Virus record (IMG/VR): IMGVR_UViG_3300023184_000120 | Coordinates: 1-62,833 of that record | Strand: one strand, 5' to 3' | Length of the DNA stretch: 62,833 nt | Source: a virus | Lineage: Duplodnaviria; Caudoviricetes | Shown here: positions 14,575 through 62,833 of the stretch, piece after piece | Layout: the number at the start of each line of letters is the position of its first letter | Position numbering within the stretch: the stretch's first letter is position 1 | Made by a program: the position numbers and the translations under genes | The notes under the pieces: generated by a model | The model's database searches: none | The model's input: only the letters and a program-made list of their open reading frames with translations | What the model was told of the DNA's origin: nothing

Positions 14575-14740
14575 GAAAGGGCAGGGGTTCTTTGTCCCCT
14601 GCCTAGACACCGAAGCCATGAAAGAGTGGGGCTTGAAGAAAGCTTTTTCTCTCAGAATACTAGATGCCCACGCTAGCGTGGGCATCCTTAACGGCAAGCT
14701 AGGTGTTATGTTTTACCGGAAGCCTCAATCCGTTTCATAG
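14534..14740 (+). CDS. Hypothetical protein, last gene of the + arm
   Basis: LPWEKVEKGQGFFVPC; overlaps the primase end and the convergent giant gene. Confidence 0.6.
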   Translation: MKYSSLRLPWEKVEKGQGFFVPCLDTEAMKEWGLKKAFSLRILDAHASVGILNGKLGVMFYRKPQSVS

Positions 14741-20700: not shown

Positions 20701-23700
20701 GCAGAAGTCTTGCGAGTATCTTCGCCATAAACTTCTTCTTCAGTTATCTTACGTGGGCGGCCACGAGGTTTAGGTTCAGGCGCTTCTACTTCTTCAGCCA
20801 CTATTGATGTGTCGTTGCGATACATCTTACGCATTTGCTCTACCAGCTCACGCTTGACCGACGCCAACTCTTTGGTAAAGCTCTTGATTTCGGCAGCAAG
20901 ATTGGTTATCTCTTGCTCAGAAGGAAGCGCAACTGTCTCTCTGTAATCTTTACGAGTTATTCTGTTTTTCTGTAACTTTAGTCTTTCTTGAATGGCTTTA
21001 AAACGCTCAAGTTCTTTTGTAGATTCGTCCAGCTTGGTTGTAAGTTCAGCTTCACGTCTTTCAAGGATGTACTGGAACTCAGCTTGGCGCTCAGCTTCAA
21101 TCGCTGCTTCTTGTGCAGTAGTAAGCTCTTTCTGGCCAGCCCGAATCTTTTCTGCATAAGCGTTGGCTTCTGCCACGGCTTGCTTGACTGTTGGAGACTT
21201 AATAGTGCGCTGCTCAACCAACGGCTGTCTAACGGAACCAACATTACGTTTGGATTCGTCTGTGCCTGTACGGAACTTGGCAGGAGCACTGGTAGTCTGA
21301 CGAGCGCCAGCCGACACGCGGCCTTGCAGAGCAACAGCCAGCCTAGCTTTATCTGCTGTGCCAGTATTGATCTCCGTGTTAACCGCGTCAATCTGACCGT
21401 TCAAGCGCTCAACTGTTTTGGTCTTACCTTCTTTAATGGCATCGTCGCGCTGAATTGTCAGGGCAGCTAATCGGTCTGTGGCTTTGCCCAACTCCTGTAC
21501 CTGATCGATGTACTGATCGAGTGTGTCCTGCTCTTCAATGCTTGCGGCACGAACTTCTGGCTCAGCACCAAGTGTTTTTCTAAGCGGCACATTACGCGCA
21601 CGCATAAAGTTAATAGCGTTTTCAAGTGTCTCTTTGCGCACAGACAGGCGGCTTTGCAAACGAATAGCCGCACCCATACCTTTAAACGCCTGTACGTTTT
21701 GTTCGCCCCCAACATACGAACCGGACTTCTTTCTAGCAGCAGTGACCTTAGTCGCGGCCTCAGTTAATTGTTTGTCAATGTTGCCAAGCTCAAGAACCAA
21801 CGATAACAGGGGCTTGTTGTACAGATCATTTTTGTATTTGACTTCACTGGCAGCATCGGCTGTTAGCCCACGTTCACGGGCATCTTGTTCGGCAGCGCTA
21901 AGCGCGCGGACTTGCACACTTTTTTCCGCTTTGTATAAATCGTAGGTAGGGTATGTGCGTAAAAATGCCGCGCCTGTATCCGGGTCTGCTGCACTTTTTT
22001 CGTAGGTGGCTTCTGATCGATCCCCAAAACCAGACATCGCCACGTTCCAACGGCGGGCACGTTCGTCAGATATTTGTTGCTCCAACTGCTGTACGGAACC
22101 CACTTTAGCGCCTTTTACAGCCTGCGCTTTGTCTGCGGCAGTCTGGCGTTCTTTAGTTTCGGCTTCGCCAACTTCAGCTTGTGCTGTGCGCACGGCTTCT
22201 TGCAAACGTTTGATCTCATCTTGAGCAGCAGCGTTGGATTTAGCTAGCGGATCAGTAGTAGCTTTGAGTTCAGCCAAACGCTGCTCACCCACCAGCACTT
22301 TGATCTGCGTACGTACTAAATCCAAAGCGCCTTTAGTCTGAACAAGTTCTGCTTTGGCTTCTTGGTACAGCGCCAACAAGTCGTCTAACTCTTTAAACAG
22401 TTTTATTTCTGGGGCGCCGCCTCGGGCACGCACACCAACGCGGTTAGATTCTTTAATCAAGTCGTCTTTAGCCTGTTCGTACGCCCTAATACGCCCATTT
22501 ATGTCGCTAGCGTCTAGCTTCAGATTGTTCATCTTCAGCACCATGTTCTCAGTGTTAGTCTGGAACGCGGTCAACTCTTGGTTTTCTTTCAAAAACTTAG
22601 TCCAGTTCTTGATCTTGCTCATGCGGACAGTGGTTGCCTTGCTGTCTTTCAGCATCTGCTTCAGGCGCGGCAACGCCCTGCTCAGGAACGCACGGACTGG
22701 GGCTAGGTTTTTATCAGACTGCTTCATGTCTTGCTTGAGCTTGCGAACATATGGGCTGTTGATAAAGCGCTGGAATGCCTCAACGTCTGGTCGTGCGCCA
22801 ATGTCTAAACTTGGGCCAGCTTCAATACCGCGGCGTTCAGCTTTCTGTACACGGCTACGCTCATCGGCTGCGCCAAACAAAGGCAGTTGACCAGCTTGCT
22901 CATCCCGAACAGTCTCAGATAAACGGACTAATGGCTCCAACTCAGCCTGTAAAGACAGCGGCACAGCTTCAACGCCTTTGCCGCGTATGGTGCCTGACAC
23001 CAGTTTGCGTTTGCCCGTAACAGGGTCTATACGGTAAACAGGCTCGTTAATATCTTGCCCACGTTTCTCAACCTTAGCTCTGCCGGGCACACCCTGTGTG
23101 CGCTTGTCTTCTTCTGGCTGGGCTACAAAGCCGGGCAACTTGCCGGGTTTGCCTGTACGCTCCAGACGCTCACGCTGAGCAAACATCTCAGTCTGAGATA
23201 CAGACGCGGCTTGTCCGGGGACAACCCCAGTAATACTATCAACATCTTTCTTAAATTCTTTTGTTGGCGTTGTGGTGCTGACCTGCGCTTGTGTTTGTTT
23301 TGTTGGCGGGAAGGTCTGAAGGTTTACGGGACGGCCAGCGCCTTTGCGCGGCACGCCCTCTGCTCCGCTCTCAATCTTCGTCAACTGCTGGTCAAGTAGT
23401 GTGAGGAAGCCCTGCGACTCCGAGACATTCTGGCGTGTGCCTTGATCTGTAACCTCAGACGTAGCTTGCTTGAGCGTCGTGTCTGCTTGGGGTATCACTT
23501 GCTCTGCACGGCGCAAGAACGCCTCGGCTTCTGGAGATAAGTCAAACACAGACAAAGCGCGGTTGATACGGCCTTTTAAATTCTCAGGCGTTATGGGGGC
23601 GCCAGACTTCTCAGAGCGTGGGTACAGACGGAACTCTTTTGCTGGCTCACGCGTAACAACGCGCTTAGCTTCTTCTGCAGGCACAACTTCTTCGGCTGTA

Positions 23701-25712
23701 GGCAACGTGCCTTTTTCTAAGGGTATACCCTGTAAGCGTTGTTGTAGCTGGCCAAATGCGGCAGACGACGTTGGCGGCGCTTCTTTGTTTCCAAATAACC
23801 CCAAGTTCTCAGTCATTGGAGAAGGCGCACGTTTTATACGCTGTAGTGCCTGCATCTCAGGCGTCATACGTTCACGCAGTGCGGCATCTTCTGCGGCACG
23901 GGCTTCAGCCGCACGGCTAGCTTCAATGGTAGCCTGTTCCTGTTCTTCCAACACACCAAGACGTTGCTGATTAGGTTGTGCTGTTTTAGCCGCTTTTTGC
24001 AGGCGCATTTCTTCTAACTGCAGATTCAACCCGCCATACACTATCTCTTCTGCTTTTTTCTGTGCGATTGCTTGTTTTTCTAAATCTTTACGTGGCGCTA
24101 CCAAAAGTGGTAATGGTGTACGTGTTTTTACTAACTGCCCCGCCATGTACGGATCAGCCATTAAGTAATCTATGTAGACACTTAAGTCTTGTTTCTTAGT
24201 GTCTTTTTCAGTGGCCATAGCCACACGCTCGGGCACTTGCTGTTTAGCCAAACCAATACGATCTTGTGCGTACTTTGCCGCGTCCGTTGGCGGTGTTGCA
24301 AAGGGGTCTTCAGCGCCCACTTCTGTAGGCGTAATCCTTTGTTTGCCTGAAATTTGTTTTTGTTGCGCAGCTTGTTCAAGCGCGTACTCTTCGGGCGACA
24401 TGCCAGATACGCGCTGCTCTTCTCTAGCCGCTAAAATTCTAGGCTTGAGCGTGTTCCACTCTTTAATCAACGCCTTGGTTTCGTCGGAATTGCGTAAGTC
24501 TTTTTTAGCTTTTTGGGCTTCTTTTTTAGCGGCTTCAGCGGCAATATCGCCTTCCGCTACGGTAACGCTACCTGCAACGTCCAGTTCTTTAATTTGTTTT
24601 TTAACGGCTTCCAAACGGCTATCTACGTCTAGCGCATACTGAGAGCTGTTCTTTTTAATTTCTTCAGCTTTGGCAAGTGCTTCAGCTTCTTGCGTGGCTT
24701 GCAGTCTAGCTGCGGCTTTTGTTTGCTTATCGCGTTCAGTGTCTTCTGCTTTAATCTGCGTACGGGCGGCAGACTTGTCAGCAAACCGGCCAGCACCGCC
24801 TAGCAAACCTAACTTGGACACTTCAAAAGCTGTATTGCCATAGTCGGCAAAAGCTTCTTCGTCGAACAAAGACTGCCCAGCTTGCGCACGCTGAAGAAAC
24901 TGTTGTGTTACTTCGGTTGGGATTTCAAACGCAACGCCTTTAGCTGTACCTTTACCCAAGGTTTTGAGGAAGCCTTCGTCTGCCAACTTAGCAGCGGCAA
25001 GCTTTTCGGCTTCGGCAGTAGCGCCTCTTGTCAGTAACTTTTCAATGTTGGGGCCAAAGATGGCTTTGGCAATGCTGCGACCCATAGGGATCAGCATGGT
25101 GGCTACGTCCAAACCAGCGGCGGGAATTGCAAACGCGGCGGCTTTAAAACGATTGACGTCTACAGGCTCACCTTTTTTGCGTTGCTCTTCGGCTTGGGCT
25201 TCTAAAAAATCACCGTATTGTTGGGCAAATGATGGGCCAAATGCGCCAGCCAAAGCACCGTAAGGACTCTTTGTGGCAATACCAGCGGCTCTAGCTGCGG
25301 CTGCGGACTCTGCAATTTGAGGCGCTTGTTGCGCTAAAGCGTTGGGAATTTGGCGAAGGTACTCGCCAATAGCTGATGGTAAACCTTTTTCTTCGTACGC
25401 TTTGGTAACTTCTGTCCAGCCGGGCTGTTCGCCGTAGCTTGCTTTGATGGCTTTCTGACGCTCAATACCAGCTTCAGCGGCTTCGTTTCCACCTGTTAAA
25501 GACGCTAGACCTGTGCGCTGTGACGAGAAAAGCTGTTCTGCACCCTGCCCAACACTTTCAAAAAAACCGGGACGTTTCTTTGGGGCTTCGGTTGACTCTC
25601 CACCAAATGCTTCGGGGTATTTTTGGTAGGCGGCCTGCATGGCCGTTACATAAGTTTCGCCCTCCTTCACGGGGAAAAACGATCCGTCAGGTAATTTGAT
25701 GTAATTAGCCAT
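14706..25712 (-). CDS. Giant (3668 aa) polyvalent, probably virion-ejected protein with zincin metallopeptidase, WCT/PcfJ-like and LPD38-like C-terminal domains
   Basis: LLHEGTHAAV...LSEFAAE; NTSWCTG...GDFYIY...EVAVRM..GEVRG; IPFFNAQIQG...KLPIPYEAG; long coiled coils; last gene of the virion operon. Confidence 0.75.
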   Translation of the reverse strand: MANYIKLPDGSFFPVKEGETYVTAMQAAYQKYPEAFGGESTEAPKKRPGFFESVGQGAEQLFSSQRTGLASLTGGNEAAEAGIERQKAIKASYGEQPGWTEVTKAYEEKGLPSAIGEYLRQIPNALAQQAPQIAESAAAARAAGIATKSPYGALAGAFGPSFAQQYGDFLEAQAEEQRKKGEPVDVNRFKAAAFAIPAAGLDVATMLIPMGRSIAKAIFGPNIEKLLTRGATAEAEKLAAAKLADEGFLKTLGKGTAKGVAFEIPTEVTQQFLQRAQAGQSLFDEEAFADYGNTAFEVSKLGLLGGAGRFADKSAARTQIKAEDTERDKQTKAAARLQATQEAEALAKAEEIKKNSSQYALDVDSRLEAVKKQIKELDVAGSVTVAEGDIAAEAAKKEAQKAKKDLRNSDETKALIKEWNTLKPRILAAREEQRVSGMSPEEYALEQAAQQKQISGKQRITPTEVGAEDPFATPPTDAAKYAQDRIGLAKQQVPERVAMATEKDTKKQDLSVYIDYLMADPYMAGQLVKTRTPLPLLVAPRKDLEKQAIAQKKAEEIVYGGLNLQLEEMRLQKAAKTAQPNQQRLGVLEEQEQATIEASRAAEARAAEDAALRERMTPEMQALQRIKRAPSPMTENLGLFGNKEAPPTSSAAFGQLQQRLQGIPLEKGTLPTAEEVVPAEEAKRVVTREPAKEFRLYPRSEKSGAPITPENLKGRINRALSVFDLSPEAEAFLRRAEQVIPQADTTLKQATSEVTDQGTRQNVSESQGFLTLLDQQLTKIESGAEGVPRKGAGRPVNLQTFPPTKQTQAQVSTTTPTKEFKKDVDSITGVVPGQAASVSQTEMFAQRERLERTGKPGKLPGFVAQPEEDKRTQGVPGRAKVEKRGQDINEPVYRIDPVTGKRKLVSGTIRGKGVEAVPLSLQAELEPLVRLSETVRDEQAGQLPLFGAADERSRVQKAERRGIEAGPSLDIGARPDVEAFQRFINSPYVRKLKQDMKQSDKNLAPVRAFLSRALPRLKQMLKDSKATTVRMSKIKNWTKFLKENQELTAFQTNTENMVLKMNNLKLDASDINGRIRAYEQAKDDLIKESNRVGVRARGGAPEIKLFKELDDLLALYQEAKAELVQTKGALDLVRTQIKVLVGEQRLAELKATTDPLAKSNAAAQDEIKRLQEAVRTAQAEVGEAETKERQTAADKAQAVKGAKVGSVQQLEQQISDERARRWNVAMSGFGDRSEATYEKSAADPDTGAAFLRTYPTYDLYKAEKSVQVRALSAAEQDARERGLTADAASEVKYKNDLYNKPLLSLVLELGNIDKQLTEAATKVTAARKKSGSYVGGEQNVQAFKGMGAAIRLQSRLSVRKETLENAINFMRARNVPLRKTLGAEPEVRAASIEEQDTLDQYIDQVQELGKATDRLAALTIQRDDAIKEGKTKTVERLNGQIDAVNTEINTGTADKARLAVALQGRVSAGARQTTSAPAKFRTGTDESKRNVGSVRQPLVEQRTIKSPTVKQAVAEANAYAEKIRAGQKELTTAQEAAIEAERQAEFQYILERREAELTTKLDESTKELERFKAIQERLKLQKNRITRKDYRETVALPSEQEITNLAAEIKSFTKELASVKRELVEQMRKMYRNDTSIVAEEVEAPEPKPRGRPRKITEEEVYGEDTRKTSAMEDVYNPREGEEYARGVESTSPDLTAAQVRALEDNDLRAAFIDMANDPATSQVNRAVAQRLADMLDDTSVSIQSQVTDENGKAVLGSATSRRISLSRNGGLSQEILLHEGTHAAVERVLQMDESKLTKQQLVAKRELQALYAAVKNDPKITSASAKGSLSEFAAEVMSNRTLQQQLQSKKWRLSDAWAGFKSIIMRLLGVERPETMFGAALQSVDALMIPSSVRTAGVERTVSRKLAQKDIAALHTGSNSMKQFAEQFGPEIKQKDRTAEDADRIGKAVLDNMGLYPSQYISGVDEDKLSKNTKIIMSDGKPFDEDNPLHYVEADAQTYINLAIKEGSNLGNMLAEQITDKRRKDLSELVYDLLNTPEYTYVEQALVAKAASKYAVLSDKTGRLKLAEIGKDNTHNLAFISSKDAGEVIRKLREGLPLKQAFLAGMQEMADRNAENNAKKDGWQKFDQHLLPERPEVRVRLMTPEDMTFSGMRFEMKRADNPNLFERNGQPVDRAELSAELQAIWEKEIFERGARRGPVRAPARVLARPARVPARPVNLGEQLRQIANAVNAGEARPRTFADLFDEEVKPNAVRVLKLTNEQADVLEMENARLEIEGEPKLTTIDETAKFLDSYYTEIYANAKDIQKAAEELNAGAANTSWCTGGDVQTAKGHIEQGDFYIYYKNGKPEVAVRMDGKTSVGEVRGNTESQGLTNEQELIAKDFLSSKKFTGSKQYIDTLERKQALTSILKGEKDFDVPFLMKLGSYVDSSTGDANPYAIKRLLDFSAIDGENFVERPEPTDAVIAAVGKKLNESTEAAIKEGHFLGTRGFVSGSTFHYYIQDTYFEVPADSVRTADSIHFINNAVYLPNLETLNVANISGNAVVHLPKVRNVAVVRFGGEDRTKPVLVLADNAVINSVEVTDNYEETSLVRLNATIKNATVVTSIEVNADFTAIDLSLPDTIYAPEMTPKARERAVADGNSMQFYGLIQELDKKHELKNIQFDADDKIVKTLRKATKEALGQQAVNYADGDTNQDETTMYEWLWSVREALELQHVSPKADIFKIAKKVNAAFDIETVAPEEKLIDSRSQLGTVDIPNRIADQPPVLEMIEPEETPRYARAAQYGEENALVDLAKDIMSKKKTWKEQLGTKPFLQAEMELVDMRAGLREALKAGAKEIGDDMLFTQAMSHIVMADQKMAMLNASLQKGPMELYTDEKGFKGVRSIDKDNALDVFKSVADIPMGDPEAKANIATTYMIAQRAMNKGVAKLDLGALGVTEEKLKAALAAANADSKLKNALEATRSAYNAYNEGQIKFLASTGAITKAEADRLLKEGDFIPFYRVNENGMAQLVFSDEVTVTIGDIRRQPYLKELVGGETRILPITETLQRNSLLIMDKALTNLATKNLAYAFQKIGEGKGPVGKDGKPTSAMPIHIGMGPASPDVIRFNQEPNPDKPDDKGERWLRVKTSDTVMGGIPAELIVKSLEGAHLTLPAFLKIGGIAGDILRSGVTRMPIYIARQLVRDPMAAAFTGGLDYNPLTAVVKAGKEFVASSRGQSPINEEMIKKGLIQSGIFTGDPDDVAKMALQLASGKDQSVLDKVFAATDRYAMRADAATRALVYENARRNGLSEVEADLAVRESMNFYKRGLSPTVQYASRLIPFFNAQIQGLNVLYKAARGQMPFEEQMQIQQKFFNNALLLVATGIVYAMAMDDDEYYKNAKPKDRYTNFFLHLPGVDEPLKLPIPYEAGWFFSLAVAASDAMKAEVDGVQQLEALRDMFLQSVPGYSSRGVPQIFKPAFEVYSNKRFFNDSAIESARMEKLSPQQRFSETTTEAAKMLSKVLPGFSPVQIEHLATGYFGQLPLIVMGAADGLFRKKTRGEPAEKRVSDLPFIGSSFQKKYGGADSDVMYRMASESMQAKATFDDMRKKGQGQEARDFLEDNRALVASAALARNYQNVMGKLRTDVDRINNMKNMTGAEKRARLDKIDAARQDVADKFEKAMKRIEASGKT
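19061..19107. repeat. 21-bp tandem duplication (about 2.2 copies) within the giant gene
   Basis: CAGGGCGTGCTGGTACACGAG / CAGGGCGTGCTAATACACGAG; encodes PARVLAR-PARVPAR. Confidence 0.8.
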
Positions 25713-52451: not shown

Positions 52452-54955
52452 GATTTAGGTTCCGTTTTGGGTTGGTTGCGTAACGTGTGCTGCAGTGCCG
52501 TAGTGCGTGCTTGCAAATCCATTTGCTTCTGGTTCTTTGCGATGTCAGCGCCCATTTGAATACCGGATCGCTCTTGCTCAAATTGTTGCTTGGCTTGGCT
52601 TTCTTTGATCTGTGCGCCAACACGCATAGATTCCAATTGCAGTTGACCGATGACTTTTTGTTCTTCCAACTCTTGTTTGTCGGAAGCGGCGGCGGCATCC
52701 ATCATCAACTTCTGTTTTTTCAACTCCAGCTCTTGGCCTTTAAGTTGCAACTCCTGCATCTGCAACTGCAACACGGGGTCTTGGGCTTGTTGCTGTGCCT
52801 GCATCTGAGCCGCCTTGGCTTGATCTTGTTGCAATACTTGTTGCGCGGCTTGAGCCATCATGCCCGACAAAGCAATCTCCACTTGCGGTGGCAACTTCTC
52901 GTCTTCGGGCGGTAGGGGCATACCCAGTTGTTGCTCGATCTTCTGACGCATCTGGTAACCAACGTGCTCTGCAATGTGCGCAGTGATTGCACCCATGATC
53001 TTGGGGGCTTGTGGGTTTTGGCCAATGAACTGCTGAATCAGGGGGTCTTGCAAGAGCATCATGTGCACTTGAATGTGCGAAGTATGGTCTTGATGCAAGA
53101 ACGCTTTCATGGGCTTACCCTTGAGCGTATTTTGATTTTCTTGCACTGGGTCTGTTGGCTTTTGATCGTCCTCAATGGGCACGAGTTTTTCGGCGTTCTT
53201 GATGCCCAATACGTTAAGCATGCCCCTGTGAAGTTCTGGCAAGTTGTAGATGTCCGGAGCCATCTGTGCCATCTGAATGACCGCTTGGTACTGAATAACG
53301 CGCTGAGACATGGTCGCAGCGTTGGGGTCTGACACGGGGATCACGTCCACCAAGTCGTAGTCGGCTTTTTTAGCTTTGCGAGTACCGTACTCGGGTGTGT
53401 ATGTGTAATCAGCGTCGGTGTAGTCGCGGATGATGTTCTTCAAGAGCTTAAACTCTTGCTTCAGGGCAAAGTGCACACGAGCCTGCACCGCAGTCATTAC
53501 TTTCAGTTGTCTTTCTAACAACGCAAGTGTGGTTCCCACGGGGGCCTGCGCAGACATATCGCTGACTTTCATGTCAGCAGTTGCGGCAAAACGCCTGCCT
53601 TCATCAACAATAGTCTGCATCAAGTTAAACAGCGTCTGGCTTGGCTCCTTGTATGGAAGCGGCAAGATGTTGTCGCGGATTGTGCCCGAGCCAACGTCTA
53701 CGTCTCGGAACTCTCCGGGGGCGATCGGTGTGTCGTCACCCTTGATGCGAAGACCCCGTGTCTTGAGTCCGCCGGGCAAGTTGCTGAGTGTTCCTGCATC
53801 GACAAGCTGGCGCATGAGGGATGTAGCGGATTTAGCAAAGCCTCCGATAAGATGGAACAGCCCGAAGCCGTAAGCTCCAAAACCCGGAATATATTGGTAG
53901 TGCACAAAGTGCTGGCGCTTGAGGCGAAGGTCATCTTCTTCCTTCCAGTTGCGGCGAATTGACAGGATGTCGTTAGAGCCTTTAATCAACGTGACCACGT
54001 ACGGCAGCATGATGCCGGTCTCTTCACCTGCGTCGTCTTTGTCTTCGTAACCCTCAAGGTTTAAATCAACGTGGCACTCATACAGGGTGTAGCGGTCGTC
54101 GTTCAAGTCACTAAAGCCTGTCTCTTTGTCCTTGGCTTTCTGAATGTCTGTCAGGTCTTTGGGCGAGTCTGGCAAGTCAATGTCAACGTAAAACCCAACT
54201 TGCTGGAGCTTAATAATCTCGTTCTTGGTCTTACGCATCACGTGTGTAATGCGGTAACAAGTATCCAAATCTGTTGTGCCGTACGGCAGATACATATCTT
54301 CCGCAGGAATAAACATCGACACCTGACGTCCCAAATTGGGATCGTAGTAGACCTTCTTAAACGCTGAGCCTGTGGCCGGTAGTGACCAGAGCATGCGCTC
54401 GTGTTCAGCGCGGTACTCCGTCATGACTTCCGTCAACTCGTAGTTCATGTCGTCTTCAACGTTAGACGCAACTTCTTTCATCTCTGGCGTTTCTTTGCCG
54501 ATGAGTTTGCTGCGCACAGGCCCTTGGGCTGGGAACGTCTCAGTGATTGTCTCTGCTTGAAAGCGCACAACGGCTTCTGTAATCATGGGGTGGAACACGC
54601 CGCATGCGCCGTTCCACGGTTCTGTTCTTTCCTCTATTTGAAGGCCAAGTAGTTTCAACCCATCAACGTAGGTCTTCTCCCAGTCCTTGCGGCCATTCTT
54701 GTCGTTGTCAATGTCAGACACCAAGTCCCCAGCCAACGACTGCAATGCGCCGTCTTTTATATACTCAGCCAAGTTGTCATCGAAGCCTTCTTCGGTGTCG
54801 TCCTCTCCGGGCTTGAGGCTAATCTCCATGCCGTCCATACCAATGGTAACTTCTTCGGGATCAACGATCTCGATCTCCAAGGGGGACTCTTGCTCGCCCA
54901 ACGCGTCAATGCCCAGTGGTTGTTGGTACAGCGCTTTGTCGATGTTCGTTGCCAT
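52448..54955 (-). CDS. Portal protein (P22-like, long Gln-rich C-terminus)
   Basis: GSAFKKVYYD, GFYG-like GFGAYGFG, LVDAGTLSNLPGG, PLPYKEPS, APVGTT; follows TerL. Confidence 0.88.
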   Translation of the reverse strand: MATNIDKALYQQPLGIDALGEQESPLEIEIVDPEEVTIGMDGMEISLKPGEDDTEEGFDDNLAEYIKDGALQSLAGDLVSDIDNDKNGRKDWEKTYVDGLKLLGLQIEERTEPWNGACGVFHPMITEAVVRFQAETITETFPAQGPVRSKLIGKETPEMKEVASNVEDDMNYELTEVMTEYRAEHERMLWSLPATGSAFKKVYYDPNLGRQVSMFIPAEDMYLPYGTTDLDTCYRITHVMRKTKNEIIKLQQVGFYVDIDLPDSPKDLTDIQKAKDKETGFSDLNDDRYTLYECHVDLNLEGYEDKDDAGEETGIMLPYVVTLIKGSNDILSIRRNWKEEDDLRLKRQHFVHYQYIPGFGAYGFGLFHLIGGFAKSATSLMRQLVDAGTLSNLPGGLKTRGLRIKGDDTPIAPGEFRDVDVGSGTIRDNILPLPYKEPSQTLFNLMQTIVDEGRRFAATADMKVSDMSAQAPVGTTLALLERQLKVMTAVQARVHFALKQEFKLLKNIIRDYTDADYTYTPEYGTRKAKKADYDLVDVIPVSDPNAATMSQRVIQYQAVIQMAQMAPDIYNLPELHRGMLNVLGIKNAEKLVPIEDDQKPTDPVQENQNTLKGKPMKAFLHQDHTSHIQVHMMLLQDPLIQQFIGQNPQAPKIMGAITAHIAEHVGYQMRQKIEQQLGMPLPPEDEKLPPQVEIALSGMMAQAAQQVLQQDQAKAAQMQAQQQAQDPVLQLQMQELQLKGQELELKKQKLMMDAAAASDKQELEEQKVIGQLQLESMRVGAQIKESQAKQQFEQERSGIQMGADIAKNQKQMDLQARTTALQHTLRNQPKTEPKS

Positions 54956-54963
54956 GTGTGTTC

Positions 54964-56505
54964 CTAGTAGTATTCGTATTTCCTGCGGCGAAAGATCTCA
55001 AGGTCATCTTTCTCATCCGTGTCCAAACTGATAAAGCCGCCTTGCCTAAAGCGCAGCAGCGCCTGTGTTGTCGTGTCCACGTAGTCGTCATGCTCCCCAA
55101 CTGGGAACGCGGCCATCTCTTCAATCACTTCCCGTGCCCAGCGTGTATCGGGTGCCCAGACTTTACCTGAACTGAACAAATCTGCAACCGCGTTGACACG
55201 CACCATCTTGTCGTTGCCCCTTGATGGGCTAAATTCTTGGACTGGGATCCCCAGTGCCCTAAGTTCTTGGATCAGTGGTGCGCCAGCCGCCTTTTTCTCC
55301 ACAATGAACGCGTCGGGTTCCCACTCTTTGTACTGTTTGAGCGCAACGACCTTGAGTTCGGGAAAAGCCATCCGGTCTTTGAACGCATCCAAAAGAATAA
55401 GCTGTGGTGAATCATTTTCTTCCTCGTTGTAGAAGATGCCCCACGTGGTGCAGGCTGAGTAGTCGGAGTTGTTCTTGGTTTCAAACGCCGTATCCCAAGA
55501 CTGAATGACGTATTCGCACTTTGGCGGGTCGTCGTGCTCCCAAATACGCCACATTTTACGGCTCACAATGGCCGAGTTCTCGCTTGTAGGCTGCTGCATG
55601 TACTGCGCGTTCCAATAACGCGGGTCAATACTGGCTTTTGTCGATTTCAACGCCTCAAGTGACCACTGCTCTGGCCATAGGGACTTCTCGTCGTCTTCGT
55701 TCTCGTTCAAAATGGCCGGCAACTCCACAATCTCCCATGGAACAGCCTCTGGATTCTTAGTCTGGTAGTCAATCAGGCGCCCAGTCAGGTCTAACAGCGA
55801 CCAACGGGTCATCACAATGATAATCCCACCGCCCGGCATCAAACGCTGCAAGGGGCCAGTCTGGAACCAAGACCAAGCTGTATCAAACGCGAGTCTAGAG
55901 TTGGATTTTACGTCCTGCTCCGAGTGAGGATCATCAATAACGAACAGATCAGCACCACGACCAGCAAGAGCGCCCCCGACACCAGCAGCGTAGTACTGAC
56001 CGCCAGCGCTTGTAGACCACTTACCGGCAGCCTTCTGGTCATCTGCCACCATAGTGTTGGGGAAAACTTCACGGTAATCCTCCGAATCGATCAAGTTCCT
56101 GATGCGCCGCCCAAAATCTTCCGACAAACCCGCAGTGTGCGTGCCCATAATGATCTTCTTCTCAGGGTACTTGCCTAAAAAATAAGCAGGGAACAGGTAT
56201 GAGGAGAACTCAGACTTACCCATACGAGGCGCGATGTTGATAATCACGCGCTTTTTGCGTCCTTCAACCACATCTGTGAAGATTTTGGCCAGCTTCTTGT
56301 GGTGTGGGCCGATCTTAAAGCCCGGATATACGGCAGTAGCGAATCCCAACATGTTTGTTTTAGCCGCCTGCAGTTTGGCGCGGGACTCCCGAAGCTCTAG
56401 GTCATTAAACAACTCCATCTTTTCTTTGACGCTCATGTGCGGCAGAGCCTTGGCCATAGCCTCTAGCTCAAGTTTGGTCAGTGTTGTGAAGTTTTCAGGC
56501 TTCAT
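54964..56505 (-). CDS. terL: Terminase large subunit
   Basis: APRMGKS Walker A, GRGADLFVIDDP, MTRW, SWDTA, DYSA, IVEKKA, HDDYVD. Confidence 0.95.
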   Translation of the reverse strand: MKPENFTTLTKLELEAMAKALPHMSVKEKMELFNDLELRESRAKLQAAKTNMLGFATAVYPGFKIGPHHKKLAKIFTDVVEGRKKRVIINIAPRMGKSEFSSYLFPAYFLGKYPEKKIIMGTHTAGLSEDFGRRIRNLIDSEDYREVFPNTMVADDQKAAGKWSTSAGGQYYAAGVGGALAGRGADLFVIDDPHSEQDVKSNSRLAFDTAWSWFQTGPLQRLMPGGGIIIVMTRWSLLDLTGRLIDYQTKNPEAVPWEIVELPAILNENEDDEKSLWPEQWSLEALKSTKASIDPRYWNAQYMQQPTSENSAIVSRKMWRIWEHDDPPKCEYVIQSWDTAFETKNNSDYSACTTWGIFYNEEENDSPQLILLDAFKDRMAFPELKVVALKQYKEWEPDAFIVEKKAAGAPLIQELRALGIPVQEFSPSRGNDKMVRVNAVADLFSSGKVWAPDTRWAREVIEEMAAFPVGEHDDYVDTTTQALLRFRQGGFISLDTDEKDDLEIFRRRKYEYY

Positions 56506-57076
56506 CTGTCTTCTCTTGCGTCACATCAACCACATCGATCACACCCATGAACCTGTTGAGCTTGTCTTTAATGCGTGTCTCTAGCTCTACGTCCGACATG
56601 GTTTCTTTTTTGACCTCAACCCGTTCAGTAAACAGCGCCACCTCCGTCACCGTCCCCAACATCTGCAATGCTTTAAGGCGTATGCGTGCGTCTGGATGTT
56701 TGACTTCGTCTAGGATCTTAGCCACTGCGTAGCCCCTAAGCTCTCTGGCCTGCTCGACAAACGCCCAATCGTAGGCAGTGAGCATACCCACTAAATGCTG
56801 CACCGCAGCAGGAGCCTTAATGTTAGCAAGCGCTTGCTGTGTGTTCTGTGGTGGCTGGCCTGTGACTAAAGAAGCAAAGGAATTCCTTGCCGCCTGAGCG
56901 TCTGCCTTGGACTCTGCTTCATCGTCGTCTAGCTCTAACTCTTTTAGCCAGTTTGCCGTTTGGACTTGTGCGTCAATGATGTCTGCTGGCGCTGCGTCAG
57001 CAAAAGGCAACGGCGTAGCCGTGGTCATATCGACCACGCTTGGTTCAAACTCGCCGTTAATCAAATGTTCTAGCAT
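56495..57076 (-). CDS. terS: Putative terminase small subunit
   Basis: Directly upstream of and overlapping TerL; RLKALQMLG...V.LF motif. Confidence 0.65.
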   Translation of the reverse strand: MLEHLINGEFEPSVVDMTTATPLPFADAAPADIIDAQVQTANWLKELELDDDEAESKADAQAARNSFASLVTGQPPQNTQQALANIKAPAAVQHLVGMLTAYDWAFVEQARELRGYAVAKILDEVKHPDARIRLKALQMLGTVTEVALFTERVEVKKETMSDVELETRIKDKLNRFMGVIDVVDVTQEKTDEA

Positions 57077-57142
57077 TGCGTAGGTTGGCGCCGGAGCTGC
57101 CCCTGCGGGCGCTCACTTGGCGCTTGTTGCCTCGTTGCAGTT

Positions 57143-57172
57143 AGTGTACACTTCTTTTCGGCAATGGTGCAA
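57143..57172 (-). promoter_or_regulatory. Sigma70-like promoter for the packaging/structural operon
   Basis: TTGCAC-18 nt-TACACT on the - strand, about 65 bp upstream of terS. Confidence 0.55.
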
Positions 57173-57218
57173 GTTTTTGTTCTGTTGCTTCTCCTTGATG
57201 GATGGTTGCCATCCTCTT

Positions 57219-57253
57219 TGCCCCACTAGTTGACGCTGGTGGGGCATTTTTTT
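57219..57253 (+). terminator. Intrinsic terminator-like hairpin
   Basis: TGCCCCACTAG...CTGGTGGGGCA followed by T7. Confidence 0.6.
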
Positions 57254-57262
57254 ATATAGTAT

Positions 57263-57278
57263 TGTCCAACGTTTGACA
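57263..57278. promoter_or_regulatory. 16-bp operator-like palindrome
   Basis: TGTCCAACGTTTGACA, matches copies at 1943 and 9743. Confidence 0.55.
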
Positions 57279-57512
57279 TGGTACCTTAGAAATTTTTTAA
57301 AATTTTATGGGGGGTGGGGTGTTGCGGTCAGGAATTTGAAAAATTGGATTTGTGGTTATGAAACAGTGTTTATAGCCGCTAGCTACCACGTTCTCACATA
57401 GGGGAGTGGGGGATGGGTGGGGTTCTTTGTATTCAGATATAGCCCCCAAAGCAGAATAAAGTACCCATTTGGTAATATAGAGACATCGGTTGGGAGATAG
57501 CCCAGCCGATAC

Positions 57513-57529
57513 GGGGAGACATTCTCCCC
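57513..57529. repeat. GGGGAG-N5-CTCCCC palindrome, intergenic
   Basis: GGGGAG ACATT CTCCCC. Confidence 0.85.
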
Positions 57530-57562
57530 GATACAACCATTAGTCAATTCAAGGAGAACACC

Positions 57563-58033
57563 ATGACTAAAGCTAAAGCAATCACACTTTCATTCGAGCA
57601 ATTCGCAGAGGGCTGTGGCAGATCAGATGGCATGACACTCAACGCAAGTGATGAGTACCACAAGCAATACCTACGGCTAGACTCTGACGGCAAGGCGAAC
57701 TGGGAACAACGCTATGTGTGCAACTACATTGTCGGCTACACCGATTCACGCAAGACCATGCCAAGCATGACGCTCAAGCAAGCAACTGATGCCTTCGGCA
57801 TGAAGCGCACAGAACGCTCACGCAACGAGGAACTAGCCGTCAATGCGGGCAAGGCAAAGTTCCGCTACCACATCAGTCGCCCTGAGAAATCAAGTGGCAA
57901 GAAACCTGTGGTGCGCTTCACCGCAGAGCAACGCACCGCTTGCGACAATGCCTTGGCATCTTTCCCTGCTACCAAGCTTGCAGATCAGATCAAGATGTTG
58001 CGTGCTTACCTGACTTCTTTAGAAGCTCAATAA
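57563..58033 (+). CDS. First early gene, hypothetical protein
   Basis: AAGGAG RBS; first ORF of the + arm; flanked on both sides by the palindrome. Confidence 0.75.
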   Translation: MTKAKAITLSFEQFAEGCGRSDGMTLNASDEYHKQYLRLDSDGKANWEQRYVCNYIVGYTDSRKTMPSMTLKQATDAFGMKRTERSRNEELAVNAGKAKFRYHISRPEKSSGKKPVVRFTAEQRTACDNALASFPATKLADQIKMLRAYLTSLEAQ

Positions 58034-58036
58034 TCT

Positions 58037-58053
58037 GGGGAGACTTTCTCCCC
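58037..58053. repeat. GGGGAG-N5-CTCCCC palindrome, intergenic
   Basis: GGGGAG ACTTT CTCCCC. Confidence 0.85.
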
Positions 58054-58145
58054 GATTCTCCAGATCACCGCAAGGGCGAGGCTCTTGCGGTGTTTCTTTT
58101 CCTGTCCAATTCGTTTCACTCAATAATCTCAAGGAGTCAATAATC

Positions 58146-58244
58146 ATGAGCAAACAACACCTTTCCCTCATCAAACAGATCATGTATCACGCATATCGTG
58201 AGGCGTGCCGTAACAACCGCCCCATGTCAATCATCATTCGTTGA
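58146..58244 (+). CDS. 32-aa peptide (MSKQHLSLIKQIMYHAYREACRNNRPMSIIIR)
   Basis: Translated by hand; AAGGAG RBS. Confidence 0.55.
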   Translation: MSKQHLSLIKQIMYHAYREACRNNRPMSIIIR

Positions 58245-58256
58245 AAGGAGATCGTC

Positions 58257-58496
58257 ATGCGTAACCTCATTCAGCCCATCACAAAAGAGCGTGGCACTAT
58301 TCGTGTCGGTGGCTTTGACTACCATATGCAAACCATCAGCTACGGCTCACAGAACCACATCCATGTCTTTCGCAAGCAAGCACCGCACAAGCGAGGGCTT
58401 GTCTTCCTCAACGCACAGGAATACATAGCATGGATGAACAATAGTGCTCAACTAAAGCTGCCTTTTGGGGAGACTTCCTCCCCAACTGCACTATAG
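58257..58496 (+). CDS. Small early hypothetical protein
   Basis: AAGGAG RBS; ORF track. Confidence 0.7.
   Translation: MRNLIQPITKERGTIRVGGFDYHMQTISYGSQNHIHVFRKQAPHKRGLVFLNAQEYIAWMNNSAQLKLPFGETSSPTAL
58467..58483. repeat. GGGGAG-N5-CTCCCC palindrome inside a CDS
   Basis: GGGGAG ACTTC CTCCCC, encodes GETSSP. Confidence 0.85.
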
Positions 58497-58499
58497 TGC

Positions 58500-58860
58500 G
58501 AGATTATTGAGGCAAAAAACAAGACACGGCCAAATGTCCAACACTACAACCCGTTGACTAATTTGCGTGTAACCCTCTAACCCGCATGAACACTAGCGTT
58601 GCGCAAAAACTGTCCTTTCTATCTATCTATATAATATATAAATAGATATAGATATGTATGTATCAGGGGGTGAGCATTTCCGCTTTCTCAAAGACTTTCT
58701 TTTTTTGTTTGGCTATAGCCGTTCAGAAATAAGGTAGATACATCGGACACTTTTCGTGCTAAGCTAGCACTGGTGCGGGTTCAGAACCTACACGCTTCTT
58801 AGTCCACGCCCTGTAGTGTTGGACATTTGGCCGCCCCTCAATTTTGGAGTCAATAATCTC
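58500..58860. repeat. 130-bp imperfect inverted repeat around an AT-rich core, candidate replication origin
   Basis: Arms 58500-58629 and 58731-58860 align without gaps (92/130 by hand count); perfect 22-bp core at 58527-58548 and 58812-58833. Confidence 0.8.
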
Positions 58861-59565
58861 ATGTACGAAACCTACATCAAACTTACGCCTAACGAGTTAC
58901 ACAACCGCTTGGTCGAGCGCAAGCTACACGAATCCGAGATCGAACGCATCAAGGCAGAGGTAGCTGACCTCAAGGAATCCTTGCGGGTGAGCAGAATAAC
59001 CAAAACCCAGCGGGAAGCCGAATGGCTTAAGGTGCTGCAACCCCTGCGCTACGAGATCAATAATGCCAAGGTTGGCATGAAATACGGCGGGGAGAAAGTC
59101 TCCCCAGAACGGGCGCTAGCTTTCAGCGAATACATACGCATCATGGAGAAGCTCGTGGCTATGCTCGATGCCCCATCGAAGGCACTCGATCACACGCCCA
59201 TACAGATAGCCCGTGACAAGGGACTGCCCAACGATGGCGAGCACTGGACAGACTGGATACCGGCACGGGTCAAAGACAAGATAGCCTTGCTGTTTGACGC
59301 AGTACCCATCACACCAAGGGGCAAGCGCAAGATACCCTTCCAACGCACGATGCTGCCCCACCAGCACGAGACAGCCAAGGTGAGATTATTGACCAAGACA
59401 AGAAAGGAGATGGAATCCATCATGCGTCAAGCTGGAATCCAGCCTACGCAAGCACGCTTAGACAAGATAGCCAAGATGAAGCGAGCACTCAAGATTATTG
59501 AGGCGCTCGATAAGAACGAAGCAGTGCCAGCTACATGGACAAAACTAAACCTAGGGGGGGACTAA
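58861..59565 (+). CDS. Helical, basic early hypothetical protein
   Basis: GGAG RBS before ATG 58861; HWTDWIP motif. Confidence 0.75.
   Translation: MYETYIKLTPNELHNRLVERKLHESEIERIKAEVADLKESLRVSRITKTQREAEWLKVLQPLRYEINNAKVGMKYGGEKVSPERALAFSEYIRIMEKLVAMLDAPSKALDHTPIQIARDKGLPNDGEHWTDWIPARVKDKIALLFDAVPITPRGKRKIPFQRTMLPHQHETAKVRLLTKTRKEMESIMRQAGIQPTQARLDKIAKMKRALKIIEALDKNEAVPATWTKLNLGGD
59089..59105. repeat. GGGGAG-N5-CTCCCC palindrome inside a CDS, spacer inverted
   Basis: GGGGAG AAAGT CTCCCC is the reverse complement of the ACTTT copies; encodes GEKVSP. Confidence 0.85.
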
Positions 59566-59584
59566 CTACTGTCAACAAATCTTT

Positions 59585-59601
59585 GGGGAGACTTTCTCCC
59601 C
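59585..59601. repeat. GGGGAG-N5-CTCCCC palindrome, intergenic
   Basis: GGGGAG ACTTT CTCCCC. Confidence 0.85.
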
Positions 59602-59664
59602 GAAATGTTCGGCGCTTGGGCAATGCCGTTCACCATCCGCAACCTGCCTACAAGGAGAATCAAA

Positions 59665-59907
59665 ATGAAACTATCCGTAACCATGCTTGACAACAACACC
59701 AAGAGTGCCGTCATCAATGTCGGAAAAAACAACGGGTATATCGAGGCTTTTGTGTGGGAGGGTATTTTGAGCCTCTACGTGTTTAACAAAGAAGGTGACG
59801 TAGTGCATAACTATGCCATCACAGCCAAGGACTTGCGTGCAGAAGGCGGTTGCACTACGCCTAAGTTCGAGCCTGCACAAGAACACTACGAAGGAGAATC
59901 AAAATGA
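59665..59907 (+). CDS. Early hypothetical protein
   Basis: AAGGAGAATCAAAATG start context. Confidence 0.7.
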   Translation: MKLSVTMLDNNTKSAVINVGKNNGYIEAFVWEGILSLYVFNKEGDVVHNYAITAKDLRAEGGCTTPKFEPAQEHYEGESK

Positions 59908-60182
59908 ATTATGAAGGACAAGCTAAAGAGTGGATACAAGACGCACCGCAAATAGACATCCATATTGGGCGGTTCACGCTCAGATTCAAATTGACCATCG
60001 ACAGAGATTGGGGCTGGGCTTGGGAGTATATGAGTTGGCTTGTGCCAGACGATTTCCGAGGCTCGCCTGAGGAGGAGTATTTCTTCGAGCTTTTTGATGA
60101 TTCAAACGCCAGTACGCACGACATGGATTTCATTGACGTACTACTCAAAGAAATGAAAGAGAAACCATTTAAAGGAGAGTGA
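59904..60182 (+). CDS. Early hypothetical protein
   Basis: Identical AAGGAGAATCAAAATG start context; coupled. Confidence 0.7.
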   Translation: MNYEGQAKEWIQDAPQIDIHIGRFTLRFKLTIDRDWGWAWEYMSWLVPDDFRGSPEEEYFFELFDDSNASTHDMDFIDVLLKEMKEKPFKGE

Positions 60183-60493
60183 GCATGGGATTAGATATCA
60201 ACATCCTTAGCGTGCATCGTGCCGTTACTACAAAGCCAGCCGATGCCTACCTCGGCTCACGCTATGACGCAAACCCAAGATGGAAGCAAGTCGCCTACGA
60301 TCGAGACGCTTGGGACTTGCATGAATTACTTGCCAAGCTATATCACAAACAAGGAGGGACACAAGAGGAATTTAACAACGTGAATGTGCGCTTGTACAAG
60401 CGTGACCTACACCTGTTCTATGCACCACTAGCCGAAACGATTTTCGAACACATGAAGCAAGGGCGAGTCGTGTACGCCGAATCTAGTTTTTAA
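60179..60493 (+). CDS. Early hypothetical protein
   Basis: MGLD..., FNNVNVRL, V.Y.SSF pattern seen in small phage proteins. Confidence 0.7.
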   Translation: MSMGLDINILSVHRAVTTKPADAYLGSRYDANPRWKQVAYDRDAWDLHELLAKLYHKQGGTQEEFNNVNVRLYKRDLHLFYAPLAETIFEHMKQGRVVYAESSF

Positions 60494-60508
60494 CCAAGGA
60501 GAAAGCAA

Positions 60509-60727
60509 ATGACCAAAGTCAAACACCTGTCCAACACGCAGCTTGTACACAAGCTCATGAGCAACCCCAACCCGCTGATGCAGGCGTTCGTGATCGAAGC
60601 GATACGACACTACGCAGACCAAACCAAGCTCTCACCATCATGGTCAAGCCAAGGGTTCATAAGCGAAGCCGCATGGCGTGCGTGTGCTGAAGAGGCACTG
60701 GAAGCAATCAACAACAGGAGTAAATGA
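60509..60727 (+). CDS. Early hypothetical protein
   Basis: AAGGAG RBS; LMQAFVIEAI..YA...FIS..AW. Confidence 0.7.
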   Translation: MTKVKHLSNTQLVHKLMSNPNPLMQAFVIEAIRHYADQTKLSPSWSSQGFISEAAWRACAEEALEAINNRSK

Positions 60728-60728
60728 G

Positions 60729-60902
60729 ATGAAACTAACAGTAATCAAAACAAACGATGGGTACATGGTCGAGGATGACACAGGCGACTACATCCATGAC
60801 ATCAACGGCAACAACCTGTTTGATACCCACTCTGAGGCTGAAGATCTGATGCACACACACCTCATGACCTTCGGCACAGATTCAGATAACGGAATGGAGT
60901 AA
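60729..60902 (+). CDS. Small acidic hypothetical protein
   Basis: AGGAG RBS; start moved to MKLTVIK. Confidence 0.6.
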   Translation: MKLTVIKTNDGYMVEDDTGDYIHDINGNNLFDTHSEAEDLMHTHLMTFGTDSDNGME

Positions 60903-60905
60903 AGC

Positions 60906-61145
60906 ATGAGAGTAGTCCGTATTCGTATACACGGGAGATACACAGCCCCATTCAATAACCCGTTCACGGCTAACGCTGTGGTCATGCCAGTTGAGTTATC
61001 CGACTCGATGCGTGATGAGGTACTCAAGAAGTACAAGGATGCCCACTATGTGTTCGATGCAGGCAACCCAATCGTGGGCGAGCACAACACGTTCGAGGTG
61101 TATTCGTTCGATGTAATAGATGACATGGAGGTATCGCTAGCCTGA
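60906..61145 (+). CDS. Early hypothetical protein
   Basis: GGAG RBS; ORF track. Confidence 0.65.
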   Translation: MRVVRIRIHGRYTAPFNNPFTANAVVMPVELSDSMRDEVLKKYKDAHYVFDAGNPIVGEHNTFEVYSFDVIDDMEVSLA

Positions 61146-61179
61146 GCAACAGGCGTGTTAGTTAGTGTGTTAGTTCATT

Positions 61180-61201
61180 CGGGGACTTGTCCCCGATCTT
61201 T
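61180..61201 (+). terminator. Hairpin with CUUG tetraloop before the amidoligase RBS
   Basis: CGGGGA-CTTG-TCCCCG followed by ATCTTT. Confidence 0.45.
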
Positions 61202-61223
61202 ATAAATCAAGGAGAAATAATAT

Positions 61224-62833
<1,610 letters not shown>

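Follow-up and report, generated by a model that had tools for sequence, protein, structure and literature searches.

The window analysed here, an entire IMG/VR virus record of 62,833 bp (IMGVR_UViG_3300023184_000120), contains a 361-bp imperfect inverted repeat at 58500-58860, directly upstream of a gene designated P0001. The anatomy of this element, its conservation, the maintenance of its symmetry, the fixed spacing of its sites, its single-copy status and its linkage to P0001 were established directly. The best single reading of these features, advanced tentatively and not as the probable answer, is a module of the origin-plus-initiator type. More broadly, the element is most likely a place at which proteins either open the DNA for replication or regulate P0001. 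Neither the origin nor the early control sites are known in nearly all phages that have not been cultured, and the element is a concrete cis site with a partner gene, its anatomy being kept from near-identical genomes to lineages in which the protein is barely recognisable. If the origin reading is true, P0001 would define a new initiator family; if a host factor reads the 20-nt sequence (20-mer) found in the arms, two bacterial phyla would share a highly conserved DNA word that has so far escaped notice, and it would hint at which hosts these phages infect.

What we infer is that a protein binds the element, melts it and initiates replication there, as follows. The repeat would be a DNA-level nucleoprotein site within a two-part module, composed of the cis element and the P0001 gene. 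Two 20-bp recognition sequences, placed face to face 163-166 bp apart and accompanied by clusters of the pentamers GGACA/TGTCC, would bracket the most meltable DNA; a sequence-specific protein (P0001, a host factor, or both) would bind both arms and open the AT tract, and the element would act as a phage replication origin next to an initiator-like gene. The same sites probably also control the transcription of P0001. A DNA-protein complex is preferred to an RNA hairpin because the inward-facing sites keep their fixed spacing in lineages that share little else, because the 20-mer is directional relative to an extremely unstable AT tract, and because the element is single-copy and strictly inherited with one gene. 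A free RNA loop would not need a fixed spacing, which argues against the hairpin. The initial annotation, made from the letters of the window, had likewise set protein-DNA contacts above an RNA hairpin, and both the rigid spacing and the lack of a G·U bias on the + strand favour that choice; its proposal of an origin is supported in part, in that the element is a conserved, single-copy and symmetric cis element with rigid spacing, inherited together with 58861-59565, at which replication may start.

Anatomy of the inverted repeat

Positions 58500-58629 align without gaps to the reverse complement of 58731-58860, with 92 of 130 positions identical, around a symmetry centre at 58680. This agrees with the initial annotation, whose list of conserved blocks also reappears in the alignment. 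Identity between the arms drops to 1-4 of 10 inside 58630-58679, and the outer 72 nt were recovered independently by a second inverted-repeat search (78% complementary). The gap-free local score is 36.5, whereas 40 shuffled versions of 57500-59999 average 10.7 and never exceed 13.0, and the element is the top-scoring inverted repeat genome-wide, the next two (19 and 16) being copies of a short hairpin motif. When an arm profile built from 32 arms was compared with the genome, only the two arms were found (E 1e-40 and 1e-37; the next match has E 0.47), and no further copies of the arm blocks rise above chance elsewhere in the genome. Many of the conserved blocks had been described as lying about one helical turn apart, which the alignment does not bear out: the pattern of matches and mismatches repeats every ~13 nt, with an autocorrelation of 0.243 (P=0.002 before any correction for the 20 lags examined), against autocorrelations of 0.02 and -0.04 at 10-11 nt.

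The AT tract noted earlier between the arms is the richest 45-bp A+T window of the genome (58616-58660, 84% A+T), and a T-run follows at 58700-58706. Over 45 steps, duplex stability reaches its genome-wide low at 58618-58663, with -42.1 kcal/mol compared with a mean of -63.8 and a standard deviation (sd) of 3.8, that is, 5.7 sd below the mean. A central unwinding element had been proposed; the tract has the instability but is placed beside arm A and not at the symmetry centre.

Conservation and linkage to P0001

The comparison covers 69 related viral loci, 19 found by a 20-mer taken from the arms and 50 found by P0001. Alignment with relatives was a check proposed with the original observation, and the element is carried by all 69 loci wherever the contig reaches, except in the three most distant ones, where it is weak or absent, and it always lies directly upstream of the P0001 homologues. 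All 19 loci found by the arm-derived sequence are syntenic over 58246-59670 at ~78-88% identity and have both arms where the contig allows, three of these contigs being cut inside the element. Among the 50 loci found by P0001, arms of 128-133 nt that match at 86-98 positions are present in 33; another 13, at 52-56% amino acid (aa) identity, have arms of 41-101 nt; three, at 31-32% aa identity, have only 14-32 nt of arms; and one has too little upstream DNA. The element is conserved more than the surrounding coding DNA, with an identity per 30 nt of 0.80-0.94 within 58500-58859 compared with mostly 0.57-0.95 in the coding flanks, and flanking genes are swapped in and out among relatives. Across the 361 bp, the alignment of 27 distinct close sequences contains a single 2-nt insertion (in L046) and is otherwise gap-free.

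The symmetry of the arms is maintained, whether through selection for matching arms, conversion between arms, or both, because the likeness of the two arms within a genome (0.58-0.75 in every lineage) outlasts the likeness of orthologous arms between the window and the deep lineages (0.50-0.71). Moreover, blocks have been replaced in both arms together in three separate lineages. In this clade the 130-nt arms are an enlarged form of an older and smaller design, in which a distal 20-mer is followed by the AT tract and, after ~100 bp, by an inverted 20-mer proximal to the gene and then the gene itself.

An inverted orientation of the centre occurs in none of 40 aligned sequences, and neither strand-changing joints nor molecule ends were seen in the contigs of four sequencing runs, where contigs can miss rare forms. 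In record 2 of run X1, the probable source sample, a 4872-nt contig matches the window only at 58091-58109 and in the AT tract (58609-58655), the latter match carrying a 5-nt deletion; this suggests a further relative with different arms.

The 20-mer and the GGACA/TGTCC pentamers

The most deeply conserved block of the arms is the core 20-mer AACCCGCATGAAYACTRGCG (58579-58598), which is kept as sequence, still preceding an AT tract, in relatives with as little as 31% protein identity. In the lineage at 52-56% identity, the exact 20-mer is present in both arms, facing inward and 164-166 bp apart, while the arm B copy of the window has degenerated and lies 163 bp from its partner. Two inward-facing 20-mers at 163-166 bp, around an AT tract and with GGACA/TGTCC nearby, are found in three divergent lineages. 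The unrelated contig L249 carries an 18-nt perfect inverted core pair, 164 bp apart, around an AT-rich palindrome, with GGACA repeats outside the core pair and a gene that starts 15 nt past the proximal copy.

The exact 20-mer is found in 39 viral contigs, 17 of which have a strong P0001 profile match; one more locus, L272, derives from the clade contig that also yielded L022 and stops short of the gene, which brings the share of this clade to 18 of the 39, the rest being other phages (the viral 20-mer loci are labelled L198-L275). Relative to the AT tract the 20-mer is directional: a 30-mer with at least 85% A+T lies downstream of it within ~120 nt in 19 of the 39 viral loci, and upstream in none. 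Three or more GGACA/TGTCC pentamers fall within 150 nt of the 20-mer in 19 of the 39 loci as well. The element of the window has four, compared with 0.57 expected (P=0.003), and an enrichment upstream of P0001 homologues is seen in 14 of 16 loci, which are related, so that the tests are not independent. The positions of the pentamers turn over between lineages, a behaviour likened here to that of iterons. In other phage lineages, the 20-mer is followed by remote P0001-like genes, and the distance between the two is unchanged. The genes behind the 20-mer in L239, L249 and the L247 group encode proteins of 217-283 aa with an N-terminal CxxC..CxxC, whose similarity to P0001 is weak (hhalign probabilities of 81%, 58% and 12%); in hmmsearch with P0001, L239 reached E 3e-6, and four loci in which the gene abuts the motif reached about 1e-5.

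Bacterial genomes also carry the exact 20-mer, at no fewer than 121 loci (at least 121; L077-L197), with ~4 expected by chance as estimated from the size of the collection; among the matches listed, most come from Terriglobia and Burkholderiales. The 114 usable bacterial matches among those listed fall into 68 flank clusters, and nothing is conserved past the 20 nt. In five bacterial genomes, 1-10 copies (up to 3 mismatches) were counted, compared with 0-2 for a reversed control. The neighbouring genes are unrelated and have no common function, and several copies are intergenic, upstream of diverse genes. These occurrences suggest that a conserved host component may read the word, and they point weakly to freshwater Burkholderiales as candidate hosts. 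Rfam searches of 14 and of 10 bacterial 20-mer loci found no family over the motif, the only match being a neighbouring tRNA in L154, and a literature search with 10-mers and 14-mers of the 20-mer returned only unrelated, primer-type matches. The end of the motif overlaps an encoded tRNA 3' end in two bacterial loci, L154 (by Rfam) and L114 (by eye). In one metagenome-assembled genome of Terriglobia (L085, L087, L089, L101, L111 and L117), the 20-mer sits mid-repeat between GGTTAC/GTTACC arrays, an arrangement that looks like an iteron-flanked site of a mobile element.

Alternative explanations

Several observations weigh against an origin. The minimum of the cumulative GC skew, a profile that the initial annotation had proposed as a check, falls at 59700, ~0.8-1 kb rightwards of the element and 2.2-2.6 kb past the switch in gene orientation (57076-57563). 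Its location within 1 kb was counted as weak evidence for an origin; against an origin stand its offset from the element and the flatness of the basin around it (58800-60000). The AT tract lies away from the symmetry centre. C and A are enriched on the + strand of the unpaired patches of either arm, with no switch in strand bias at the centre, where a long-standing bidirectional origin might have produced one. Concerted changes of the arms are also expected for a hairpin or for gene conversion. Among the at least 121 bacterial loci listed, an AT tract accompanies the 20-mer in 1 of 121, GGACA clusters in 3 of 121 and a P0001-like open reading frame (ORF) in 0 of 121, and copies without the rest of the module are not predicted by the origin reading. 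In addition, the 20-mer is far better conserved than P0001, so P0001 may not be its reader, and the protein has neither a recognisable DNA-binding or initiator fold nor a Pfam or PHROG family. Finally, arm B extends into the translation start region of P0001, which is what a control region specific to that gene would do. A promoter-operator role for P0001 fits the same data almost as well as an origin, and the two are not mutually exclusive. In its strict form, with no role in replication, it is possible and somewhat doubtful: a promoter in the AT-rich centre would be accompanied by two inverted 20-bp sites for a single regulator, either P0001 itself or a transcription factor of the host, which on binding would loop ~165 bp and set the timing or level of P0001. 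The constant location immediately ahead of genes of the P0001 family, whose start codons are 15-100 nt from the proximal site, speaks for this, as do the fixed spacing of the 20-mers, the excess of copies in the five bacterial genomes, as host-regulator sites might show, and the intergenic location upstream of diverse genes in several loci. It is opposed by a consensus scan of 58500-58860 that finds no sigma-70-like promoter, by a 20/20 match across two bacterial phyla and several phage lineages that is stricter than is usual for regulator sites, by bacterial contexts that share no gene function, and by 130-nt arms and a genome-extreme duplex instability that exceed the needs of an operator. 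A more speculative view, considered rather unlikely, takes as the key an asymmetric 20-bp word, stricter than the neighbouring protein and scattered in Burkholderiales and Terriglobia: phages might copy the recognition site of a highly conserved host machine that reads DNA or RNA, two inward copies at a fixed 164 bp might open the DNA, and the element and the P0001 family might together constitute a kind of replicon or control module that has not been described before and is widespread among phages of freshwater and soil.

The origin module is ranked first, followed by the promoter-operator of P0001, an RNA leader, another DNA transaction site and a functionless relic, and the probability that remains beyond these is left for some other function. 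An RNA element is improbable. A transcript through both arms would fold as a long imperfect hairpin that hides the P0001 start (GAGAUUAUUGA pairing with UCAAUAAUCUC), as a substrate for a double-strand-specific RNase or as a device for timing translation. The predicted hairpin of the whole repeat reaches -150.1 kcal/mol (z -11.7), as is expected for any inverted repeat, and 11 perfect pairs span the spacer between the ribosome-binding site and the AUG; the local partner of GATTATTGA, which lies 5' in some relatives and 3' in others, suits pairing better than a fixed protein dimer site. The initial annotation had tied its DNA reading to an absence of compensatory changes, yet between deep lineages both arms do change together: across 40 sequences with these lineages added, two-sided changes fill 262 cells compared with 143 ± 8 after shuffling (0/500 shuffles reach 262), and the covariation score is 0.134 compared with 0.03-0.05 for slid partners. 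These double changes nevertheless cluster in three lineages and so represent few independent events. In 15 distinct close genomes, the 130 columns comprise 66 invariant pairs, which are uninformative, 39 pair-breaking columns, 10 with some double changes, and only 2 that stay fully paired via a one-sided change. On the + strand there is no preference for G·U: A·C mismatches exceed G·U in 40 of 40 genomes (13 vs 4 in the window; 446 vs 150 cells overall), an excess that can be explained by the C/A-rich unpaired patches, and both strands fold equally well. A consensus fold of 32 distinct single arms yields -3 kcal/mol in either orientation, with no common fold, and Rfam searched over 57000-60500 (E up to 10) gave nothing within 58500-58860. 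Furthermore, the arms of deeper relatives stop 43-92 nt before the start codon, so that hiding the start is not a conserved feature; a hairpin would require neither the constant 20-mer distance nor the constant arm lengths; and the 20-mer itself is conserved as sequence and not as a pair. Still less probable is another symmetric DNA transaction site, such as a packaging or concatemer-processing signal near the left genome end, or a recombinase site. The element is single-copy, has two putative binding arms around a central region and lies ~1-1.7 kb from the junction of the divergent late and early blocks, where the layout predicts physical ends; however, P0001 is unlike the annotated small terminase of phage DSL-LC04 and the usual position of that gene is taken by another ORF, a non-exhaustive scan of the proteins found no integrase or invertase, and no inverted form was seen in the 40 aligned sequences or in the contigs of the four runs. 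Least probable by far is a functionless relic of a decaying inverted duplication or a miniature transposable element. Long terminal inverted arms, the lack of an ORF and the size of 361 bp would suit it, but it is already contradicted by conservation above that of the coding flanks; the symmetry is actively maintained, and there is one copy per genome, no empty site in relatives and, by eye, no target duplication at the ends.

Comparison with known systems

Iteron plasmid origins have an adjacent rep gene, and the IncQ plasmid RSF1010 has an oriV with the inverted pair ssiA/ssiB. Like the candidate sites of the element, the sites of these origins flank an AT-rich meltable tract beside the gene of a small basic protein, and sites on opposite strands face each other and overlap the control region of the gene. 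Unlike in iteron origins, there are no tandem direct iterons of 17-22 bp here, only two 20-mers and scattered pentamers; P0001 has no Rep or winged-helix similarity, and the element has no DnaA boxes. In archaeal oriC, inverted origin recognition boxes flank an unwinding element beside orc1/cdc6, and herpesviruses have the oriL/oriS palindromes. These origins share with the element inverted sites around an AT-rich core by a candidate initiator gene; host domain and proteins differ, and the 130-nt arms and off-centre AT tract set the present element apart. The looping operator pairs of lac, gal and ara also place two sites around a promoter region at a fixed distance, on the scale of 100-200 bp, whereas the 20-mers of the element are asymmetric and inverted, and the consensus scan revealed no sigma-70-like promoter. 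Leader hairpins that hide a phage gene start or are cut by RNase III are found in the T4 e gene, the lambda N leader and the T7 early sites. The outer 11 nt of arm A, which complement the P0001 start region, and the location in an early region recall them; these hairpins are tens of nt in size, in contrast to the 130-nt arms with fixed spacing, a sequence-conserved core and no G·U bias described here.

Coliphage N4 (EF056009) resembles the present genome in its layout: one strand carries the early and replication genes, the other the late genes, which have a giant ORF at their end. Its first 9 kb contain no comparable inverted repeat, with one 24-nt pair inside a gene, and, unlike in N4, the giant ORF here has no RNA polymerase similarity. 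The consulted part of a review on N4 (PMC4496689) describes short hairpins with 3-nt loops upstream of early genes and holds nothing on a replication origin. Pelagibacter phage HTVC023P has no such repeat either (best score 15.5); in the paper on it (PMC9599517), RNA polymerase, replication origin, terminal or inverted repeats and N4-likeness go unmentioned, and "freshwater" appears only in the reference list. A literature search returned no relevant paper on inverted-repeat replication origins in N4-like phages.

Features within and around the element

The features of the element and its immediate surroundings are collected in Table 1.

Table 1. Coordinates of the inverted-repeat element, its parts and adjacent features in the window.
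Feature	Position	Strand	Remarks
Hairpin GGGGAGA-CTT-CCTCCCC, 7-bp stem	58467-58483		Just upstream of arm A; one of 7 genomic GGGGAGANNNTCTCCCC copies at gene boundaries
Perfect 12-nt palindrome GCACTATAGTGC	58488-58499		Between hairpin and arm A
Arm A	58500-58629	+	Gene-distal
GAGATTATTGA	58500-58510	+	Exact complement of the P0001 spacer between ribosome-binding site and start codon
TGTCC	58535-58539	+	One of four GGACA/TGTCC pentamers
20-mer AACCCGCATGAACACTAGCG	58579-58598	+	Deepest-conserved block, directed towards AT tract
TGTCC	58611-58615	+	Pentamer
AT-rich tract	58616-58663		Adjoins arm A, off symmetry centre 58680; conserved in relatives
GGGGG run	58666-58670	+	Invariant in 40/40 aligned sequences
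T-rich stretch	58696-58709		3' of GGGGG run
Palindrome GGCTATAGCC	58711-58720		After the T-rich stretch
Arm B	58731-58860	-	Gene-proximal
GGACA	58745-58749		Pentamer
Degenerate mirror 20-mer, AACCCGCACCAGTGCTAGCT in arm sense	58762-58781	-	163 bp from arm A copy
GGACA	58821-58825		Pentamer
GGAG ribosome-binding site and TCAATAATCTC spacer of P0001	58846-58860	+	Outer end of arm B
P0001 gene	58861-59565	+	234 aa; always linked to element

In relatives, a hairpin of differing sequence always lies 20-30 nt upstream of arm A (by eye). In about half of the close relatives, TCAATAATG replaces the palindrome GCACTATAGTGC and forms a local inverted pair with GATTATTGA (by eye), the latter being unchanged in 40 of 40 aligned sequences. 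Allowing up to one mismatch, TCAATAATCTC occurs eight times, compared with 0.66 expected, at 58027, 58120, 58137 and 58850 on the + strand and at 58500, 59382, 59491 and 14518 on the - strand. The + strand copies are spacers before start codons, and two of the reverse copies are within the P0001 coding region, at local conservation peaks (0.90 and 0.92).

Two candidate features were rejected. A small ORF in the centre (58654-58737 or 58658-58732) has neither frame nor length conserved among 50 loci, and a T7-like promoter reading of TGCACTATAG meets 36 matches with up to two mismatches compared with 56 expected, and a single exact copy. A scan of 58500-58860 for sigma-70 consensus promoters and terminators found no promoter-like site, and a tRNA scan of the window returned 0 genes.

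The P0001 protein

P0001 has an isoelectric point of 9.8 and a net charge of +12 over residues 151-210, and its AlphaFold model, which is confident (pLDDT 87), is all-helical. The family is large and unannotated: one search returned 427 homologues, another 319 clusters at 50% identity, and all are of much the same length. No family was found for P0001 in Pfam or PHROG, and 16 distant members have no Pfam domain above the cut-off. Comparisons with the PDB reached at best E 0.3 by sequence profile and E 1.6 by Foldseek; BFVD returned only uncharacterised phage proteins, a wide VIA-align search only generic helical hairpins (Z up to 7.5), the ESM Atlas no usable match, and tblastn against GenBank phages no match. 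P0001 was also considered as a small terminase and rejected for its lack of similarity to the annotated small terminase of DSL-LC04. The usual position of a small terminase, directly upstream of the large terminase, is occupied by 56495-57076, and this 193-aa ORF is not similar to the DSL-LC04 neighbour either.

Genome setting

The record is rated 99% complete and labelled "linear". It appears to be a closed circular permutation, because once the ends are joined (62833|1) the ORF at 61224-62831 continues to a TAA at 16-18, within the hairpin at 5-21. A block of + strand genes runs from 57563 across the junction to 14574 and holds small orphan genes, then a family A DNA polymerase, a PD-(D/E)XK nuclease, an SNF2 helicase and a DUF927 primase-helicase. 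The - strand block, from 57076 down to 14706, holds the large terminase, the portal, structural genes and a 3668-aa ORF. The element sits among the first early genes, ~1-1.7 kb from the divergence of the late and early blocks (57076-57563). Over 54000-62400, the cumulative GC skew still falls through the first + strand genes and turns only at ~59700.

The nearest large terminases are those of the Pelagibacter phages HTVC027P/HTVC023P and of the lake phage DSL-LC04, at 50-53% aa identity, and the sequencing runs that contain this sequence are lake and river metagenomes. With blastn, nothing among GenBank phages matched 57500-60500. The 3668-aa ORF (14706-25712, - strand) was examined as a possible virion RNA polymerase gene; its sole family match is Pfam LPD38, at C-terminal residues 3372-3550. 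It shows no RNA polymerase similarity and no match among PDB sequences, its residues 900-2300 are unmatched in GenBank phages, and a regular expression for one form of polymerase motif B did not match.

Short hairpins of the early region

The hairpin GGGGAGA-NNN-TCTCCCC occurs in seven copies in the genome, compared with 0.04 expected, at 5-21, 2262-2278, 57513-57529, 58037-58053, 58467-58483, 59089-59105 and 59585-59601. Five of the seven are intergenic; they lie at the previous stop or just beyond it, with 25-60 nt left to the next start codon. Relatives have compensatory changes in the stem and a loop that alternates between CTT and AAG (by eye). These hairpins have the form of N4-type virion RNA polymerase promoters, with a stem of 5-7 bp and a 3-nt loop, upstream of early genes, as defined in the part of PMC4496689 consulted. 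They could be promoter-type DNA hairpins, stabilisers of RNA 3' ends, or recombination joints between swapped cassettes. Additionally, two strong terminator-like hairpins (12 pairs and a T-run) are found in the early region, at 58066-58092 and 57219-57246 on the + strand, and one of them comes directly after the GGGGAGA hairpin at 58037.

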